Shown here in pieces: positions 3,558 through 11,682 of a DNA stretch of 64,000 bases. The number at the start of each line of letters is the position of its first letter. Position 1 is the first letter of the stretch. The DNA lies in the NCBI GenBank assembly GCA_031972855.1, contig DALYDY010000002.1, forward strand, positions 99,263-163,262, in the 5' to 3' direction. The position numbers were made by a program, and so were the translations under genes. The notes under the pieces are model-generated. The model ran no database searches. It was not told where the DNA came from and saw only the letters and a list, made by a program, of their open reading frames with translations. This DNA is from Minisyncoccota bacterium. Lineage in GTDB: Bacteria; Patescibacteriota; Minisyncoccia; Phycocordibacterales; UBA9973.

Positions 3558-4172
3558 TTAAGCAATCTTAACCCTAACTTTCTTTTTATTTTTAAAATAA
3601 GACAAATACAATCTAACATCAAACCATACAAGAACGGTAGATATTAAGAATAGTATCGTTCCTACAATATATGGAGGAATTTCTGGAGCGATTTCGTTGT
3701 TTCCATTTTTCAATATCAACAACAAGTGAACAGTACTCGCTAAAACAATAATTGCTGAGACAAAGTACCATAGATACAAGACGGCTTTTTTAATTAATTT
3801 AAAAAAGAGAGAAGAAAGTCTTCTGTCTGAAATAAATTTGTTTAAAGCTTCTTCGATTTCTTTATTTTGTTCAAGAATAAGAACTCCTTTATTTTCAAGT
3901 TTCATCTTTGCTTTTTTTGAGATCCTGTCAAGATCCCAAGTTTCAATCCCATTCTCATCTCTTGGAAAAGTGATAATAATAGAACTGGTGGTAGGTGAGT
4001 GTTCAACTTTTGTTCCTCTCGGAAATTTCCCGAAGAAATGAAGTTGTTGTTTTAATCTCTCTGATGGTTCTAACATTGTATAAGCAATGTATATGAACAC
4101 GGCAATCGAAAAAATAATTAAGACTCCCATAGTTTTATTTGTTTTTTTGTTCAAACATATTATATCACACAA
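3558..4172 (-). CDS. hypothetical membrane protein (2-3 TM)
   Basis: Long ORF with hydrophobic N- and C-terminal segments; no recognisable motif. Confidence 0.5.
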   Translation of the reverse strand: MCDIICLNKKTNKTMGVLIIFSIAVFIYIAYTMLEPSERLKQQLHFFGKFPRGTKVEHSPTTSSIIITFPRDENGIETWDLDRISKKAKMKLENKGVLILEQNKEIEEALNKFISDRRLSSLFFKLIKKAVLYLWYFVSAIIVLASTVHLLLILKNGNNEIAPEIPPYIVGTILFLISTVLVWFDVRLYLSYFKNKKKVRVKIA

Positions 4173-4460
4173 TATATCAATATGTCAATATATAAAACAA
4201 AGCCCGGAATTCAAATGAATTCCGGGTGATGGAGAACTAAAAAATTGATTACAAAATCTATAAATAATTATACGCATATTTATTCAAAATGTAAATAAAT
4301 AACGCCAGGCCCTTTTCAGGTCCTGGCGCGTTGAACAAAAAAAACAGTAATAAAAATTGCTTTAAAAACAAAAGCTATTTTATACCACCTTTCGCTATTG
4401 ATTGTACCACATCAAGACATATAACGCATTTTGTGGAAATCTGCTAGAATATATTTACTT

Positions 4461-5966
4461 ATGTCCGAGAATACAAACCCAAAAATCGTAACCCGTTTTG
4501 CACCTAGTCCTACTGGATATCTCCATGTGGGAGGCCTCCGTACAGCATTATATGCATATCTCATGGCCAAGAAGTCTGGTGGCAGATTCCTACTTCGTAT
4601 TGAAGACACAGATCAAGCTCGCACGGTAGAAGGTGGAGTGGAGAATATCGCTCGCTCTCTTGCTTGGGCTGGAATTATTCCAGATGAAGGAATACAACTC
4701 GATGAAAACGGCGCTATTACAGAGACAGGTCACAATGGACCATACACACAATCATTACGTTTACATCTATACAAAAAGTACGCAGAAGAATTGGTAGAAA
4801 AAGGATTTGCATACCCTTGCTTCTGTAGTTCAGAGCGACTCGAAGAAGTGAAGAACCAAAGACAAGCCGACAAACTACCACCAGGATATGATGGCTTGTG
4901 TAAGACATTATCAAAAGAAGAAGTAGAAGCGAAATTGAAAGCAGGTGACAAACACGTAATTCGTCTCTCTATGCCCGAAGTTGGTGCGAGTGTATTCGAA
5001 GACCTCATTCGCGGAAAAGTTTCTTTTCAATATTCTGATGTAGATGACCAAGTGCTTTTGAAGTCTGACGGATTCCCAACATACCACCTCGCTGTAGTAG
5101 TGGATGATCATCATATGGAAGTCACACATGTGATCCGTGGTGAAGAATGGATTTCTAGCACCCCAAAACACCTCTATCTATATGAATGCTTCGGATGGAA
5201 TGCGCCACACTTCGCACACCTTCCACTTCTTCTAAATTCTGACCGTTCAAAGCTCTCAAAACGCCAAGGTGACGTCGCTGTAATGGATTACAAGGAGAAA
5301 GGATATCTTCCAGAAGCACTTTTGAACTTCGTGGCTTTCTTGGGCTGGAATCCAGGCGACGAAAGAGAACTCTTCACTCTAAAAGAATTAGTGGAAGAGT
5401 TCTCCCTCACAAAAGTGAACAAATCAGGCGCAATTTTCAATCTCGAAAAGCTTGATTGGTACAATCACGAATACTTGAAGAAATTATCTCATGAAGAATT
5501 CGAAAGCTATGTCGACAACTTCATGCCAAGCATTGCAAAGGAGAGTGACAATTACAAAGAAGTCCTCCCAAGACTTCTCGGTACACTTATCGAACGTATA
5601 GAAAAGGGTACAGACATCACAGAGACGTATAAAGAGAATATTTCATATTTCTTCACAAAGCCTGTTTTAGACCCAGGAATCTTTTCATGGAAGGGTCTAA
5701 AAATTAAATACCCAAATTCAGACGAATGCACATCTATATCAAAACAATACCTCGCCGAAGTTCGCGATATTCTCTCAAATCTTGAAGATGACAAGTGGAA
5801 TGACAAAGAGGCGATAAAGGATGCAGTATGGCCTCTCACAGACAAATATGGCCGTGGAGAAGTACTCTGGCCACTCCGTGTAACGCTTTCAGGCCGTGAA
5901 AAATCTCCCGACCCATTTGAACTTTGTTTTATTTTAGGTAAAGAAGAAGTTTTGAGAAGGATTTAA
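4461..5966 (+). CDS. gltX: glutamate--tRNA ligase
   Basis: Class I HIGH motif (PSPTGYLHVGG) and KMSKS motif (KLSKR); start probably at MSENTNPKIV (4461) rather than the 4431 given in the ORF track. Confidence 0.9.
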   Translation: MSENTNPKIVTRFAPSPTGYLHVGGLRTALYAYLMAKKSGGRFLLRIEDTDQARTVEGGVENIARSLAWAGIIPDEGIQLDENGAITETGHNGPYTQSLRLHLYKKYAEELVEKGFAYPCFCSSERLEEVKNQRQADKLPPGYDGLCKTLSKEEVEAKLKAGDKHVIRLSMPEVGASVFEDLIRGKVSFQYSDVDDQVLLKSDGFPTYHLAVVVDDHHMEVTHVIRGEEWISSTPKHLYLYECFGWNAPHFAHLPLLLNSDRSKLSKRQGDVAVMDYKEKGYLPEALLNFVAFLGWNPGDERELFTLKELVEEFSLTKVNKSGAIFNLEKLDWYNHEYLKKLSHEEFESYVDNFMPSIAKESDNYKEVLPRLLGTLIERIEKGTDITETYKENISYFFTKPVLDPGIFSWKGLKIKYPNSDECTSISKQYLAEVRDILSNLEDDKWNDKEAIKDAVWPLTDKYGRGEVLWPLRVTLSGREKSPDPFELCFILGKEEVLRRI

Positions 5967-5970
5967 ATTT

Positions 5971-7107
5971 ATGGAAAAGAAGTCTTCAAATTCAAATTTA
6001 CACAAAGCAAACAAAAATAAAAAAGATGAGTTTTATACTCAACTTTTTGATATTGAAAAAGAATTAAAACATTATAAAGAACAATTTAAAGGTAAAGTTG
6101 TGTATTGTAATTGTGACGACCCATTTGAAAGTAATTTCTTTAAATATTTCGCTTCAAATTTTAATGCATTAGGATTAAAAAGATTGATTGCTACAAGTTA
6201 CAAACCTTCACCAATTGCAAATACCCAGCTCGGACTTTTTGGAGATAATAAAACACTTACTACAGCAAAAGGTCGTCCAAAAAATAATGCTAATAAATTT
6301 ATTATAAATGAAGTTCATGATATAGACAGTGATGGAGCTTTTGATTTACGTGATATTGCAGAACAACTCAAAGCAAATAAAAATAACGAATGGTCACCAA
6401 TGGAAAATGATGGTGATTTTAGAAGTGATGAAAGTATTGAGCTTTTAAAACAGGCAGATATTGTAGTAACAAATCCACCCTTTTCATTGTTTAGGCAGTA
6501 TATTGCACAGCTCGTAGAATACAATAAAAAATTTCTAGTTATCGGAAGTTTAAATGCTGTTAAATATAATTCAATTTTCAAATTAATCAAGAATAATCAA
6601 TGTTGGTTAGGTTATAATAATGGTGCAAAAACTTATTTAGTTCCAAACAATTACGAACAAAAAAATATATTTGTAGGTGAAGATGGAAAAAAATATGCAA
6701 AAATGGGTAACACCTGTTGGTTTACAAATCTTGATATTCAAAAGCGTCATGAATCAATAGTCTTGTATAAAAAATATACAACAGAAGAATATTTTAAATA
6801 TGATAATTATGACGCTATAGAAATTGGAGAACAAAAGAAAAATGGTAATTGGGAAGGTCGAATAGATATTATACCAATGGACTATGAGGGTGTAATGGGA
6901 GTACCTATTACTTTTATTGATAAATATAATCCTGAGCAGTTTGAAGCTTTAGGAGTTTTTGATGATAAAAGAGAAGAGGATGATGCTTTTATACAAGGAG
7001 TACCAACTTATGTTGACGAACAACACAAAAGATATGTTGGTCCTGTTTTAAAAGGAAAAGCTCTTTATACGCGTGTTTTAATTAAAAATAAAAAACCACA
7101 GAAATAA
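5971..7107 (+). CDS. gamma-class N6-adenine DNA methyltransferase (orphan or system-associated)
   Basis: Motif X-like DEFYTQ, motif I-like VYCNCDDPF and motif IV NPPF (VVTNPPFS); starts 4 nt after the gltX stop; very AT-rich. Confidence 0.65.
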   Translation: MEKKSSNSNLHKANKNKKDEFYTQLFDIEKELKHYKEQFKGKVVYCNCDDPFESNFFKYFASNFNALGLKRLIATSYKPSPIANTQLGLFGDNKTLTTAKGRPKNNANKFIINEVHDIDSDGAFDLRDIAEQLKANKNNEWSPMENDGDFRSDESIELLKQADIVVTNPPFSLFRQYIAQLVEYNKKFLVIGSLNAVKYNSIFKLIKNNQCWLGYNNGAKTYLVPNNYEQKNIFVGEDGKKYAKMGNTCWFTNLDIQKRHESIVLYKKYTTEEYFKYDNYDAIEIGEQKKNGNWEGRIDIIPMDYEGVMGVPITFIDKYNPEQFEALGVFDDKREEDDAFIQGVPTYVDEQHKRYVGPVLKGKALYTRVLIKNKKPQK

Positions 7108-7109
7108 AT

Positions 7110-7144
7110 ATGATATATCTTATAATTTATACATGATATATCTT
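7110..7144 (+). promoter_or_regulatory. direct repeat ATGATATATCTT x2 (7110-7121 and 7133-7144) with a TATAAT between, in the 98-bp gap upstream of fic
   Basis: Two identical 12-mers spaced 23 bp apart inside the only intergenic gap of the MTase-Fic-DUF262/HNH-HNH block. Confidence 0.3.
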
Positions 7145-7205
7145 TATATTTTTACTTAAAGTCATAAACCTTGTTTTATAAGTATATTTATTATAATATT
7201 GATAC

Positions 7206-8369
7206 ATGTTAGAAAACCTAAAAGATATATCTCAAATAGAATTAAAAGTTCCAAAACCTGAGTGGAGTAGCGATTTAGCTAATACTATTATAGAGTTAGA
7301 AGCTTTAAGAAAGAGAGAACTTAGAGGGTCTACCCCGATTCATATTTTTTTTGAAATTAAAAATGTATTTCAATTTTTAGAAAGTATTGGTTCTGCTAGA
7401 ATTGAAGGAAATCATACAACTATTTCAGAGTTTGTAGAAAAAATTATTGAGGAAGCAAACCCTAAAAAAGATGAGAGTTTAGCAGAAATATTAAACATTA
7501 ACAAAGCTATTAGTTTTATTAATGATTTTATGTCTAAAGATAAAACCATAGACAAAGCTTTATTATTAGAAATTCATAAAATTGTAGTAAGTGGGTTAAA
7601 TAGAGAAGGTGCTAAAATCATTGGTGATTACAGAAAAGAAAATGTAAACATATCAAACGCTATTGTAAAACCTCCAGAATTTATAAAAGTTAATGAATAC
7701 ATGGATAATTTATTTAATTTTATAAATGAGGTGAATGACAGAGAAAATCATTTACTTAAAGTTGCAATTGCTCATCATTATTTTACAGTAATACACCCTT
7801 TTGATAACGGTAATGGGAGGGTTGTTCGTTTGCTAACTTTCTTAATGTTAATTAAGTATGGTTTTAATATAAAAAATGGAAATATTTTAAATCCAACAGC
7901 AATATTCTGTAATGATAGAAATATTTACTATAAAATGCTATCGGAAGCAGATAATGGAAATATAGAAAATTGGTGTGTATATGTATTATCTGGACTAAAA
8001 GAAGAGATAGATAAAATTGATAGAATAAGTAATATTAAATATATTGTCAAAATTTTTAGTGATGTATTAGAGGATGCTTTAAATAAAAAATATATTGATG
8101 AGTATTTCTATAATGTATTATCGTTAATTATTAAAAATAAAGACATGATTATTTCAGCTGGAGATCTTTCAGTTTTAGATAATATGGACTCTAATCTAAA
8201 ACGATCAAGGATGATTAAAAAACTAAAAGATGCAAAAATGATAAAATCTTTAGGTGGTGAAAAAAGTAGAACATATACTATTACTTTTAATGAAAACTTC
8301 TTACTTAGAAGTTTGATAAAAGTTTTAATAAATGAAAAATTTATACCAGAATCATTGAATACAAAATAA
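7206..8369 (+). CDS. fic: Fic/Doc family protein (AMPylase-type) with Fic_N domain
   Basis: Fic_N motif SARIEGNHTTISEF and canonical Fic active site HPFDNGNGRVVRLL. Confidence 0.85.
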   Translation: MLENLKDISQIELKVPKPEWSSDLANTIIELEALRKRELRGSTPIHIFFEIKNVFQFLESIGSARIEGNHTTISEFVEKIIEEANPKKDESLAEILNINKAISFINDFMSKDKTIDKALLLEIHKIVVSGLNREGAKIIGDYRKENVNISNAIVKPPEFIKVNEYMDNLFNFINEVNDRENHLLKVAIAHHYFTVIHPFDNGNGRVVRLLTFLMLIKYGFNIKNGNILNPTAIFCNDRNIYYKMLSEADNGNIENWCVYVLSGLKEEIDKIDRISNIKYIVKIFSDVLEDALNKKYIDEYFYNVLSLIIKNKDMIISAGDLSVLDNMDSNLKRSRMIKKLKDAKMIKSLGGEKSRTYTITFNENFLLRSLIKVLINEKFIPESLNTK

Positions 8370-8370
8370 A

Positions 8371-9474
8371 ATGAAGATAGATTTACATAAAATAAAAATA
8401 GCTGAAGTTGTAAAAGACTACAAAGACAGTGCTGAGGAAGGTGTTACTGCTTTTGGCGGAAAACTCGATATTCGTCCAAAATATCAAAGAGAATTCGTGT
8501 ACGACACAAAACATCGTGACGAAGTAATTAAAACCGTTAAAAAAGATTTTCCACTCAATGTAATGTATTGGGTTAAAAAAGAAGATGAAAACTTTGAAGT
8601 ACTTGATGGACAACAAAGAACTATTAGTATTGCTCAATTTGTAAATGGAGATTTTTCTATTGATTTTAACGGGAGAATTGCAATGTTCCACAATCTAACA
8701 AAAGAAGAACAAGATCAAATTCTAAATTATGAATTGATGATTTATCACTGTGAAGGACAAGAAAAAGAAAAACTTGACTGGTTCAAGATTATTAATATTG
8801 CAGGAATGGAACTAACACAACAAGAATTAAAAAACGCAGTATATACTGGCTCTTGGCTTTCTGACGCAAAACTCAAATTTAGTAAAACAAATTGTGCTGC
8901 ATATTTACTTGCAAATGATGGCGGACAATTAGTAACAGGATCACCAATCCGTCAGGACTATTTAGAAACTGCATTAACTTGGATAAATAATGAAGATATT
9001 GAAGGTTATATGGCAAAGCATCAGCACGATACAAACGCAGATGAATTATGGCAGTATTTCCAAAATGTAATTCATTGGGCAAGAGAAGTTTTTCCAAATT
9101 ACAGAAAAGAAATGGCGAGTGTAAATTGGGGTGAATTATATAATGAATTTAATAAAAAGAAATTTGATTCATTAAAACTTGAGGAAGAAATTAAAAAATT
9201 AATGCAAGACGAAGATGTAACTAAAAAATCTGGTATTTACCCATATGTTTTAACTCGCAAAGATAGATATCTTTCTATTCGTGCATTTACTCCAAATATG
9301 AAGCGCGAAGCATACGAAAGACAAAATGGTATTTGTTCATCATGTAAAAAAGAATTTTCTATTGGAAATATGGAGGCAGATCATATTGACCCTTGGCACG
9401 AAGGTGGTAAGACTACAACAGAAAATTGTCAGATGTTGTGTAAAGAATGTAATAGAAGAAAGTCAGGAAAATAA
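8371..9474 (+). CDS. DUF262 (ParB/Srx-like NTPase) fused to an HNH nuclease; GmrSD-like type IV restriction architecture
   Basis: N-terminal DUF262 signature LDGQQRTISI; C-terminal HNH (CSSCKK…ADHIDPWHEGG…NCQMLCKECNRRK); start 2 nt after the fic stop. Confidence 0.75.
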   Translation: MKIDLHKIKIAEVVKDYKDSAEEGVTAFGGKLDIRPKYQREFVYDTKHRDEVIKTVKKDFPLNVMYWVKKEDENFEVLDGQQRTISIAQFVNGDFSIDFNGRIAMFHNLTKEEQDQILNYELMIYHCEGQEKEKLDWFKIINIAGMELTQQELKNAVYTGSWLSDAKLKFSKTNCAAYLLANDGGQLVTGSPIRQDYLETALTWINNEDIEGYMAKHQHDTNADELWQYFQNVIHWAREVFPNYRKEMASVNWGELYNEFNKKKFDSLKLEEEIKKLMQDEDVTKKSGIYPYVLTRKDRYLSIRAFTPNMKREAYERQNGICSSCKKEFSIGNMEADHIDPWHEGGKTTTENCQMLCKECNRRKSGK

Positions 9475-9476
9475 AT

Positions 9477-9854
9477 ATGAAAAGAGATAGTATTCCTACT
9501 GATATAAAACGAGCTGTTTTGGTTGAGGCAGGTCATCGTTGTGCTATTCCAACATGTCGCGCTACTACAACTGAAATTGCTCATATTATTCCTTGGTCTG
9601 AAACACAAGACAATTCATTTATTAATTTAATTGCACTTTGCCCTACATGTCATACAAGATTCGATCAAAAAAAAGAAATTGATCGTCTTTCAATTAAGAT
9701 GTACAAACACAATCTTGGTATATTAAATAATCGTTACGGTGAATTTGAACGTAGATTGTTTGAGTATTTAGCAGTTTCAGGAGAAAGAGTTTTTGTCGTT
9801 GGTGCTGGAGGAGATTTACTTGTTGCAAATGGAGTAAAGGATGGTTTTTTTTGA
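9477..9854 (+). CDS. small HNH endonuclease; frame is interrupted at a T8 tract and may extend to 9998
   Basis: HNH motif CAIPTCRATTTEIAHIIPWSE…NLIALCPTCHTRFD; starts 3 nt after the upstream stop; TGA at 9852-9854 lies inside T8 (9845-9852); the +1 frame stays open for 48 more codons to 9998. Confidence 0.65.
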   Translation: MKRDSIPTDIKRAVLVEAGHRCAIPTCRATTTEIAHIIPWSETQDNSFINLIALCPTCHTRFDQKKEIDRLSIKMYKHNLGILNNRYGEFERRLFEYLAVSGERVFVVGAGGDLLVANGVKDGFF

Positions 9855-10035
9855 AGACAAAAAAGTTGGTGGAATGGACTTAGCTATTTCTACTAGTAGT
9901 GGTTTTAAAAGAAACTTCCCAATGTCTTTTACTTATTGGGTTACAGATGTTGGTGTTGATTTTATTAAGCGATATGCAGATGGTAAAGATATTGAATAAT
10001 AACTTGATTAAGAATTTGTATAAAAAATAAATAAA

Positions 10036-10692
10036 ATGCTCCAAAAACTAAAAATCCCACTATTTGCAATATTGTTCTCACTATCATTCATTTTGATTTG
10101 GAAAGTATTGAAGCTTCCATCGGACGAAGTAATGATTGAACTTGCACGTGGATGCTTCCTAAAATACGGATTCATCACCGTACTTATCGCCGCTATTATC
10201 GAAAGTATGCTTGTGGTGGGATGGTATCTACCAGGAGGGATTGTAATATTCTCTGGTGTCATACTCGCGTCAGGTCATCCATATCTCGCAATATTGTCTG
10301 TATCAGCGACAATCATCGGCTGTACTATCGGCTACACCGCGAACTATTTCCTCGGGAAATATGGCTGGTACAAATTATTCACCAAATTTGGATTGTCCAA
10401 GTCTCTCACTGAAGCCGAAATACAATTCGCAAAGTATGGATACAAGGCGATGTATATGTCGTATTGGCAGCCCAATCTCGCAGCTCTCATATCTACTTGT
10501 GCCGGAATTACAAAAGCACCATTCTGGAAATTCTTCCTCTCTTCTTTTACTGCGACAATACTCTGGTCAATATTCTGGGGAAGTTCGACATATATTCTCG
10601 GTGAGAAAATTCTGTCATATTTGGGAATTGTATTCTTTGGAATAATGATAGGGTGGATAGGATATATAGTCTATAAGAATTATAGGAAATAA
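10036..10692 (+). CDS. DedA/SNARE-associated family membrane protein
   Basis: DedA-type motif region GFITVLIAAIIESMLVVGWYLPGG; multiple TM segments. Confidence 0.7.
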   Translation: MLQKLKIPLFAILFSLSFILIWKVLKLPSDEVMIELARGCFLKYGFITVLIAAIIESMLVVGWYLPGGIVIFSGVILASGHPYLAILSVSATIIGCTIGYTANYFLGKYGWYKLFTKFGLSKSLTEAEIQFAKYGYKAMYMSYWQPNLAALISTCAGITKAPFWKFFLSSFTATILWSIFWGSSTYILGEKILSYLGIVFFGIMIGWIGYIVYKNYRK

Positions 10693-10709: not shown

Positions 10710-11159
10710 ATGAACGACGCACAACAAAAATTACAATCTGCTATGGCATACGCGATCAAAAATCGTCCAAAGGTTGGAGGGTTTCCATTTCTTGCTGAAT
10801 GTCTAAGGAAGGCTGGTGTTAAGAAAAATATTTGGTCACTTCCTAGTGCCGAGAGTATCTATATCACAAAAGAAGGCTCTCTAGTAAAGCCTGGTGTACC
10901 TTTGGTGTCTGAAATGACACCTGTACCAGACTTCGACAAAGAAGCACTCGTCAAAGCTCTCCAAAAAGATCAAGCGGGTGAAAGCACATTTCCAGAATTC
11001 CTACTCGCTACATGGAATGCAGGAGTTGTGAGCTATGAAGTGGACTTCATAGAACGTACAGTGTCATACCGTGGCGCTCTCGGTGAAGAATATGTAGAAT
11101 CATATCCAAAAGTAGAAGTGGGCAAAGATGACGATCTGGATATACTTATGTTTGTATAA
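10710..11159 (+). CDS. hypothetical protein (possibly DUF1398-like)
   Basis: Soluble 149-aa ORF; its 3' end overlaps the next gene by 32 nt. Confidence 0.45.
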   Translation: MNDAQQKLQSAMAYAIKNRPKVGGFPFLAECLRKAGVKKNIWSLPSAESIYITKEGSLVKPGVPLVSEMTPVPDFDKEALVKALQKDQAGESTFPEFLLATWNAGVVSYEVDFIERTVSYRGALGEEYVESYPKVEVGKDDDLDILMFV

Positions 11160-11682
11160 ATACCTACTATATAATAATTTTATGACTAAGTTTTATATAT
11201 TTATTTCGATAATGATTGGTGCTATTTTATTTATAAAATTATTAGGTGAGAATTCCTCTAAAAAAGAAAAAGTTAAACCTCTTTATAAATACAAAAAGAA
11301 AGACTTCTTAATCACTCGCCCTGAACATGAATTTTTTGATATTCTTGTTGAAATTCTTGGTGATAAATATCATGTATTCACTCAAGTACATTTACCAACA
11401 ATTCTTGACCATAAAGTACCTAATGGCCAAAATTGGAAAGGGGCTTTTAGTCATATAAATGGAAAGTCTGTTGATTTTGTTATTTGTGACAAAGATTATA
11501 TAAAACCACTACTCGCTATCGAGCTAGATGACAAGAGTCATGAAAGAGAAGATAGAATATTACGTGATAGTGAAGTAGAGAGAATGATGGAAGAATCTGG
11601 AATGAAACTTGTACGTTTCGAGAATCATGGTAATTTTGATAAAGAAGAGATAAGAAAAACTATTTTAGAAAAGTTAAATTAG
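11128..11682 (+). CDS. DUF2726 (restriction-endonuclease-like fold) protein with an N-terminal TM anchor
   Basis: N-terminal hydrophobic helix, then the DUF2726-like core SVDFVICDKDYIKPLLAIELDDKSHEREDR. Confidence 0.6.
   Translation: MTIWIYLCLYKYLLYNNFMTKFYIFISIMIGAILFIKLLGENSSKKEKVKPLYKYKKKDFLITRPEHEFFDILVEILGDKYHVFTQVHLPTILDHKVPNGQNWKGAFSHINGKSVDFVICDKDYIKPLLAIELDDKSHEREDRILRDSEVERMMEESGMKLVRFENHGNFDKEEIRKTILEKLN

Follow-up and report, generated by a model that had tools for sequence, protein, structure and literature searches.

GmrSD, BrxU and SspE are known as systems in which a nuclease is under the control of a DUF262 domain that acts as a nucleoside triphosphate (NTP) switch (PMC4619093, PMC10952713), BrxU being described in PMC12707154. 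Their nuclease domain, DUF1524, also belongs to the HNH-type His-Me finger domains (PMC4619093). Proteins in which COG1479/DUF262 is fused to HNH were on record by 2013 (PMC3632139). It is also known that Fic/DOC, RhuM and GIY-YIG genes can be embedded among the core genes of restriction-modification (R-M) operons, an arrangement that has been read as multilevel defence (PMC3710099; examples in PMC9881135). Here we analyse a 64,000-nucleotide (nt) stretch of the Minisyncoccota bacterium contig DALYDY010000002.1 (the whole stretch being referred to as the window), which exhibits an open reading frame (ORF) with a DUF262 N-terminus and an HNH C-terminus. This gene, designated R, is preceded by a Fic gene and by the gene of an EcoRI-family DNA methyltransferase, designated M. 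It is likely that R is the nuclease of a mobile two-gene R-M module, in which an EcoRI-family N6-adenine methylase and a DUF262-HNH protein follow each other in fixed order.

The N-terminus of R (amino acids, aa, 34 to 158) matches the Pfam family GmrSD_N/DUF262 (PF03235) with 66.6 bits against a cut-off of 33.2 (E-value = 4.4e-18), and contains the DGQQR motif at aa 79-83 (nt 8605-8619). The C-terminus (aa 322-365) matches the classical HNH family (PF01844) with 51 bits against a cut-off of 21.4 (E-value = 1.7e-13). No Pfam match to DUF1524/GmrD (PF07510) was obtained in R at E-value<=0.01. The HNH motifs are C322-x2-C325, A336-D337-H338 followed by IDPWHEGG, N352, C357-x2-C360 and N361. Residues D337, H338, N352 and N361 align on D53, H54, N68 and N77 of the Gme HNH nickase (PDB: 4H9D). 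By this alignment D337-H338, N352 and N361 are the predicted catalytic/structural H-N-N set, and C322xxC325 and C357xxC360 are the predicted zinc ligands. R thus exhibits the features of a PF01844 His-Me finger nuclease, namely the Pfam match, the residue alignment with 4H9D, a Foldseek match and both CxxC pairs. An earlier reading of the window, made from the letters alone (hereafter the sequence-only reading), had recognised in this ORF a DUF262 N-terminus and a textbook C-terminal HNH; the scores above and the alignment of the histidine and asparagine residues to the catalytic positions of 4H9D agree with it on both counts. The fourth putative zinc ligand, C360 (nt 9448-9450), is a cysteine in the window (CKEC-N) and an aspartate (CKED-N) in most close relatives, as judged from the relatives L003 and L004 and from the consensus of the close-relative alignment A2. 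Zinc coordination at the second CxxC is therefore seemingly not strictly required in this clade.

A structural model of R was obtained with AlphaFold2 (AF2) from an alignment of 56 diverse family members (34-56% identity), with a mean predicted local distance difference test score (pLDDT) of 93.8 and a predicted template modelling score (pTM) of 0.80. Another AF2 model was discarded for its pLDDT of 50; the alignment behind it was shallow, with 37 sequences of 75-100% identity. Foldseek searches of the PDB with the R model gave matches at the level of single domains only. The fold of the N-terminal domain matches CDP/CTP-bound ParB (6SDK, 7BNR) and sulfiredoxin (Srx), and that of the C-terminus matches the Gme HNH (4H9D_C, root-mean-square deviation 2.0 over 53 columns), McrA, the Cas9 HNH and Cap5. 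Weak global matches were found with BrxU (7P9K; E-value = 8.9e-3), the overall structural similarity being poor (TM-scores 0.25/0.17), and with SspE (E-value = 0.35). The R family profile, searched against PDB sequences, matched 4H9D at 1.3e-6; the match to BrxU, at 3.9e-3, is limited to aa 36-71. Residues Q39, R40, D79, G80, R83, N142, Q151, E152, N155, W236, F241, C322, G346 and N352 are invariant among the 56 members, and H338 is kept in at least 90% of them. Invariant residues occur in the nucleotide pocket as well as in the nuclease site, which argues that both sites of R are functional. The invariant residues of the ParB/Srx-type NTP pocket, together with the fold match to CDP/CTP-bound ParB, suggest that R may use a nucleotide.

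R resembles GmrSD, BrxU and SspE in its ParB/Srx-fold DUF262 domain with DGQQR, its helical regions and its C-terminal His-Me finger nuclease, and by this analogy it probably shares their NTP-switch logic. It differs from them in three respects. Its nuclease is a zinc-bound PF01844 HNH, whereas theirs is DUF1524. It is 367 aa long, whereas they are about 200 aa longer (560-587 aa). Finally, R always occurs with its own N6-methyladenine (m6A) methylase, whereas GmrSD and BrxU are encoded alone and SspE comes with a phosphorothioation system.

A word-indexed protein search with R yielded at least 8000 candidates. The best 120 of these are 75-100% identical to R, about 367 aa long, and all carry both PF03235 and PF01844. 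An exhaustive search of 50%-identity representatives returned 7839 proteins at E-value<=1e-3 and 482 at E-value<=1e-30, and a genome scan located R relatives at 394 places in species-representative genomes. The close relatives are mostly from metagenome-assembled genomes of Patescibacteria, and the R protein of the window is already present in public databases. Full-length relatives with 38-61% identity are encoded on plasmids of Macrococcoides, Aeromonas, Variovorax, Gordonia, Dietzia, lactobacilli and Enterococcus, and by the Flavobacterium phage laban6-1. R is a member of a large and common mobile family, in which the DUF262+HNH architecture is not rare. The view of the sequence-only reading that DUF262 defence proteins pair with DUF1524 and not with a canonical HNH does not survive these observations: DUF1524 belongs to the HNH/His-Me finger domains itself, the fusion with HNH has been on record since 2013 at the latest, and the best 120 relatives all exhibit it. 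The architecture is common, named in annotation pipelines and modelled in PADLOC, so that there is little novelty in the fusion itself.

The M protein matches EcoRI_methylase (PF13651) over aa 9-374 with an E-value of 2.4e-132, matches the PADLOC model MTase_II PDLC03297 (8.8e-116), and exhibits an NPPF motif at aa 168. For a synteny analysis we used 80 genome loci, of which 77 are informative, the other three having less than 900 nt of upstream sequence. An EcoRI-family methylase gene is located upstream of R, on the same strand, at all 77 informative loci (77 of 80 overall). The same M-then-R pair was found in every plasmid or phage relative that was opened, namely plasmids of Macrococcoides, Aeromonas, Paucilactobacillus, Dietzia and Enterococcus, and the Flavobacterium phage laban6-1. 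The M-then-R order is strict across phyla, plasmids and a phage. There is also a natural 688-aa fusion of EcoRI_methylase, GmrSD_N and HNH (P0135 / P0272), represented by two distinct sequences from independent assemblies, although such fusions are rare (one among the 150 best representatives). M and R provide what is generally expected of an R-M system, a nuclease gene linked to a DNA methyltransferase gene across lineages. Because M is always paired with R, and because of the fusions, we regard R as the nuclease partner in a mobile R-M module and not as a solitary Type IV enzyme. The block formed by M, Fic, R and a small downstream HNH gene (5971-9999) has a G+C content of 25-31%, against 37-43% in the flanking gltX-like (4431-5966) and DedA/VTT (10036-10692) genes, a difference compatible with its having been acquired horizontally. 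The start of M follows the stop codon of the gltX-like gene by only 4 nt. The M-R pair of Dietzia adjoins Shedu, Abi and NYN genes.

The Type IV alternative was the proposal of the sequence-only reading, which called R a variant GmrSD-like enzyme: a solitary, modification-dependent nuclease with a DUF262 NTPase and a classical HNH in place of DUF1524. Such an enzyme would account for the DUF262 domain with its DGQQR motif, for the weak profile and fold matches to BrxU 7P9K, and for a weak match of R to the PADLOC Type IV mREase model (3.3e-5, through the HNH part). However, the best PADLOC model for R is REase_II PDLC03418 ("Type II restriction enzyme"), which matches over the full length (aa 1-367 on positions 1-372 of 372) with 432.9 bits and an E-value of 2.5e-130. 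The cognate methylase upstream at 77 of 77 informative loci and in the distant plasmid and phage relatives, the M-R fusions and the lack of a DUF1524 match also contradict a GmrSD-like identity, as does the weakness of the similarity to BrxU and GmrSD. Moreover, a modification-dependent nuclease would be self-toxic beside an active methylase, unless it targeted another modification. We consider the Type IV explanation very unlikely. Acinetobacter genes annotated as "DUF262 HNH" were considered as a characterised M + DUF262-HNH system and rejected, since they are located inside BREX loci, a different context.

Several points weigh against R being the nuclease partner of M in an R-M module, one of them from a comparison of the evolution of the two proteins over the 68 loci with full-length copies of both. 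The mean pairwise identity is 0.81 for R and 0.67 for the whole of M, so that R is the more conserved of the two; within M it is 0.76 for aa 1-200 and 0.55 for aa 201-378. The N-terminal catalytic half of M is conserved, whereas in its C-terminal half (6570-7107 in the window, aa about 200-378) conserved blocks are interspersed with hypervariable segments (aa about 200-280 and 320-365), of which 27 types were distinguished. The identity of R follows that of M aa 1-200 (Spearman 0.68) but not that of M aa 201-378 (-0.12). The DUF262 part of R tracks the N-terminal half of M best (rho 0.65-0.72), the two halves of M are mutually uncorrelated (Spearman -0.07), and in none of the 30-aa windows of R was there any co-variation with the variable M region. 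For instance, R of the loci L018 and L026 is 98% identical (100% over the first 240 residues), whereas the C-terminal half of M is 43% identical; these two M sequences are 90-100% identical up to about aa 180, and 10-55% identical in both variable segments. Judging from these comparisons, the C-terminal half of M plus the slot between M and R seems to behave as a cassette swapped between conserved anchors. Classical Type II pairs do not usually show such a pattern, and the module may differ from textbook R-M. Further points belong to the same side of the balance. There is no clear palindrome avoidance in the 64-kb window (observed/expected ratio 0.68 for TCGA and 0.89 for AATT; 1 occurrence of GGTACC for 5.6 expected), and a promoter and terminator scan of 4000-10600 gave no signal above shuffled expectation. 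The PADLOC label "Type II REase" may reflect gene context alone. No biochemistry of any R-family member or of an M + DUF262-HNH module was found in the searchable literature, and the restriction activity, NTP dependence and m6A sensitivity of R are inferred.

The same comparison bears on the possibility that R is a classical autonomous Type IIP enzyme, which alone would read the same site as M and cut it without NTP, its DUF262 domain being needed only for DNA binding or dimerisation. In favour of this, the layout is the one usual for Type II, with M and R as separate genes, and PADLOC names the model to which R matches in full length a Type II restriction enzyme. The likeness to the PADLOC classes REase_II PDLC03418 and MTase_II PDLC03297 extends to full-length matches of both R and M and to the two-gene M-then-R layout; REase_II is a database class only, and the invariant NTP-binding domain of R, as well as its uncoupling from the variable half of M, is atypical for a textbook Type II system. 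The invariance of the NTP-pocket residues Q39, R40, D79, G80 and R83 argues for nucleotide use. R does not track the recognition region of M as a Type IIP enzyme would be expected to, the variable segments being here assumed to set specificity: 98%-identical R proteins accompany 43%-identical C-terminal halves of M, the identity of R does not follow that of the variable half (rho -0.12) and no sub-window of R co-varies. This objection holds unless the variable M segments have no role in specificity. Their position in a gamma-class methylase suggests that they are the target-recognition region; no solved structure related to M was found. If they are the target-recognition region, R is without a matched specificity of its own. 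An autonomous Type IIP enzyme is, in our view, an unlikely explanation.

Since the C-terminal half of M is hypervariable and evolves independently of the conserved R, R may not itself read DNA sequence. In its fullest form, this idea would make R a sequence-agnostic nuclease, gated by NTP through its ParB/Srx fold and cutting with its HNH, whose specificity would come from M, by way of an M-R complex or of m6A sensing. The module would then not be Type II, and the recognition half of M together with the guest gene of the slot would be swappable between two conserved anchors of recombination, the catalytic half of M and R. A ParB-like nucleotide-gated clamp or slide might provide the communication along DNA. 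There is an analogy, and an analogy only, with Type III (Mod/Res) and Type I systems, where a variable recognition region in the methylase also goes with a conserved NTP-dependent nuclease partner. In contrast to these, R combines a ParB/Srx-type NTPase with an HNH nuclease and has no helicase or translocase domain, and the M-R association is known here from genes. We regard a sequence-agnostic R as possible but rather unlikely; if true, it would represent a new R-M class, in which unrelated parts would reproduce a logic like that of Type III or Type I.

The Fic gene between M and R of the window encodes a protein matching PF02661 (4.4e-18), the PADLOC SoFic model (2.2e-50) and PHROG 5978 (8e-60). 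The Fic motif HPFDNGNGRVVR at aa 197 is intact, and an inhibitory motif, SARIEG, is found at aa 63. The protein thus exhibits the sequence features of the SoFic type, the HxFx(D/E/N)GNGRxxR motif and an N-terminal (S/T)xxxE(G/N) inhibitory helix. Its score against the NCBIfam SoFic equivalog model (68.7) is below the cut-off of 550, and we therefore classify it as a relative and not as an equivalog. The TAA of the Fic gene ends at 8369 and the ATG of R starts at 8371, with 1 nt between them. This is the geometry already seen by the sequence-only reading, whose "2 nt after" differs only in the way of counting.

From this junction the sequence-only reading had concluded that R is translated in coupling with a Fic enzyme. 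The geometry stands; a dedicated partnership with Fic does not follow from it. A spacing of exactly 1 nt from the upstream stop to the ATG of R is observed at 50 of about 83 loci, the same junction occurs with every kind of gene upstream of R, and the context AAATAAN-ATGAAAAT at the start of R is kept even where the upstream ORF stops earlier. As R abuts any upstream gene in this manner, the stop/start abutment is a property of R and not a sign of a Fic-nuclease partnership. M directly abuts R at about 46 loci, and at 31 of 77 loci (40%; loci L008-L087) one or two same-strand guest genes are located between M and R, in the slot that corresponds to 7108-8369 of the window. The guest genes form 25 sequence clusters, including RhuM (PF13310, 1e-97), T5orf172/MUG113, Bro-N, an AAA_15/AAA_21 ATPase, DUF2130, several membrane or unknown proteins, and Fic. 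Fic occupies the slot at only 2 of about 78 loci, the window and the locus L022. On the Enterococcus dispar plasmid pK205-4b-C (L089), the oxazolidinone/phenicol resistance gene optrA is located at 572-2539, between EcoRI-family methylase and DUF262-HNH genes; the slot can therefore also hold a resistance gene.

A dedicated two-component system, with Fic for instance AMPylating or otherwise regulating R, would fit the 1-nt junction and the recurrence of the M-Fic-R arrangement in the second genome, L022, where Fic is 79% identical. However, 29 other loci hold unrelated genes in the slot, M abuts R without any guest at about 46, the junction is identical with every type of upstream gene, and a SoFic-type protein is a stand-alone defence gene in PADLOC. 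With Fic so seldom present, such a system is very unlikely. The M-R slot is prone to insertions, and Fic is one of its exchangeable guests; it probably acts as an independent second-line or back-up toxin, or is a passenger gaining from the stability of the module. Alignment with L022, where Fic is present, and with L069, which has no insert, shows that the Fic insert starts right past the stop codon of M. The 98-nt spacer between M and Fic is common to the window and L022 and contains TGATAYAT repeats (e.g. 7110-7120, 7131-7143 and 7198-7208; direct repeat D2), which could serve the Fic insert as operator or promoter. No repeats pointing to a transposon or an integron-type cassette were found around the insert.

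The accessory genes of Type I R-M systems (PrrC/RloC, Fic/DOC, RhuM, GIY-YIG; "rlo") are the closest parallel to this slot. The guests are of the same kinds, ABC/AAA ATPases included, and lie in the same orientation between core genes. The difference is in the host, which is here a two-gene M + DUF262-HNH module and not hsdRMS, and in the insertion site, a single precise slot between the stop of M and the start of R.

In the R-M module that we favour, with R as its nuclease, M would methylate adenines of the host DNA and thereby protect the host, and incoming DNA that lacks the methylation would be cut or nicked by the zinc-stabilised HNH (H-N-N) site of R. The nuclease would be licensed by the ParB/Srx-type DUF262 domain, a switch that would bind or hydrolyse NTP, as in GmrSD, BrxU and SspE. 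The stop-N-ATG junction would couple the translation of R to that of the upstream gene, so that R would not be made without, or ahead of, M. In Patescibacteria and on plasmids, the M + DUF262-HNH family ranks among the most widespread R-M-like modules. Its residual interest is in the guest-gene slot and in the decoupled evolution of R and the variable half of M, both of which are compatible with R borrowing its specificity from M. If M variants indeed differ in specificity while R remains constant, the module would provide a new way to couple restriction to modification, and would also be a natural platform carrying second-line defence toxins such as Fic.

The features of the locus are collected in Table 1.

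Table 1. Features of the M-R locus, with positions in the window.
Feature	Position	Strand	Description
M gene	5971-7107	+	EcoRI-family (gamma-class) N6-adenine DNA methyltransferase, 378 aa; two genes upstream of R
M-Fic spacer, 98 nt	7108-7205	+	Three TGATAYAT motifs; left boundary of the Fic insertion
Fic gene (guest in the M-R slot)	7206-8369	+	SoFic-like, class II auto-inhibited, predicted protein AMPylase; Fic_N, Fic and C-terminal regions
R gene	8371-9474	+	ATG start, 367 aa; ParB/Srx-fold DUF262 NTP-binding domain, helical middle, zinc-stabilised HNH nuclease
DUF262/GmrSD_N domain of R	8470-8844	+	aa 34-158; Pfam; includes DGQQR
HNH nuclease domain of R	9334-9465	+	aa 322-365; Pfam, 4H9D alignment, profile match
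Small second HNH gene	9477-9854	+	125 aa; starts 2 nt past the R stop
52-aa ORF overlapping the small HNH gene	9841-9999	+	Overlap at the T8 run 9845-9852

The small second HNH gene and the 52-aa ORF overlapping it probably represent a single gene of about 175 aa that is frameshifted in the T8 run; phase variation, decay or an assembly error are candidate causes of the frameshift. A small HNH gene beside R is absent from all 80 related loci; it recurs only in L001, whose sequence is that of the window. We considered this gene as a partner of R and rejected it for this reason.

The island is closely followed by a DUF1398 gene (10710-11159) and a DUF2726 gene (11128-11682), the second of which begins inside the first; the product of the DUF2726 gene also exhibits weak matches to the nuclease-like families REase_MTES_1575 and DUF559. 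The region 10710-11682 may be a further defence-related gene. On the other side of the island, the minus strand exhibits, at the 5' end of one of its ORFs (3558-4172), a perfect sigma-70 consensus promoter at 4188-4159 (TTGACA-18-TATAAT with a TG extension) and, next to it, a GC-rich terminator-like hairpin of 10 bp (4226-4203).

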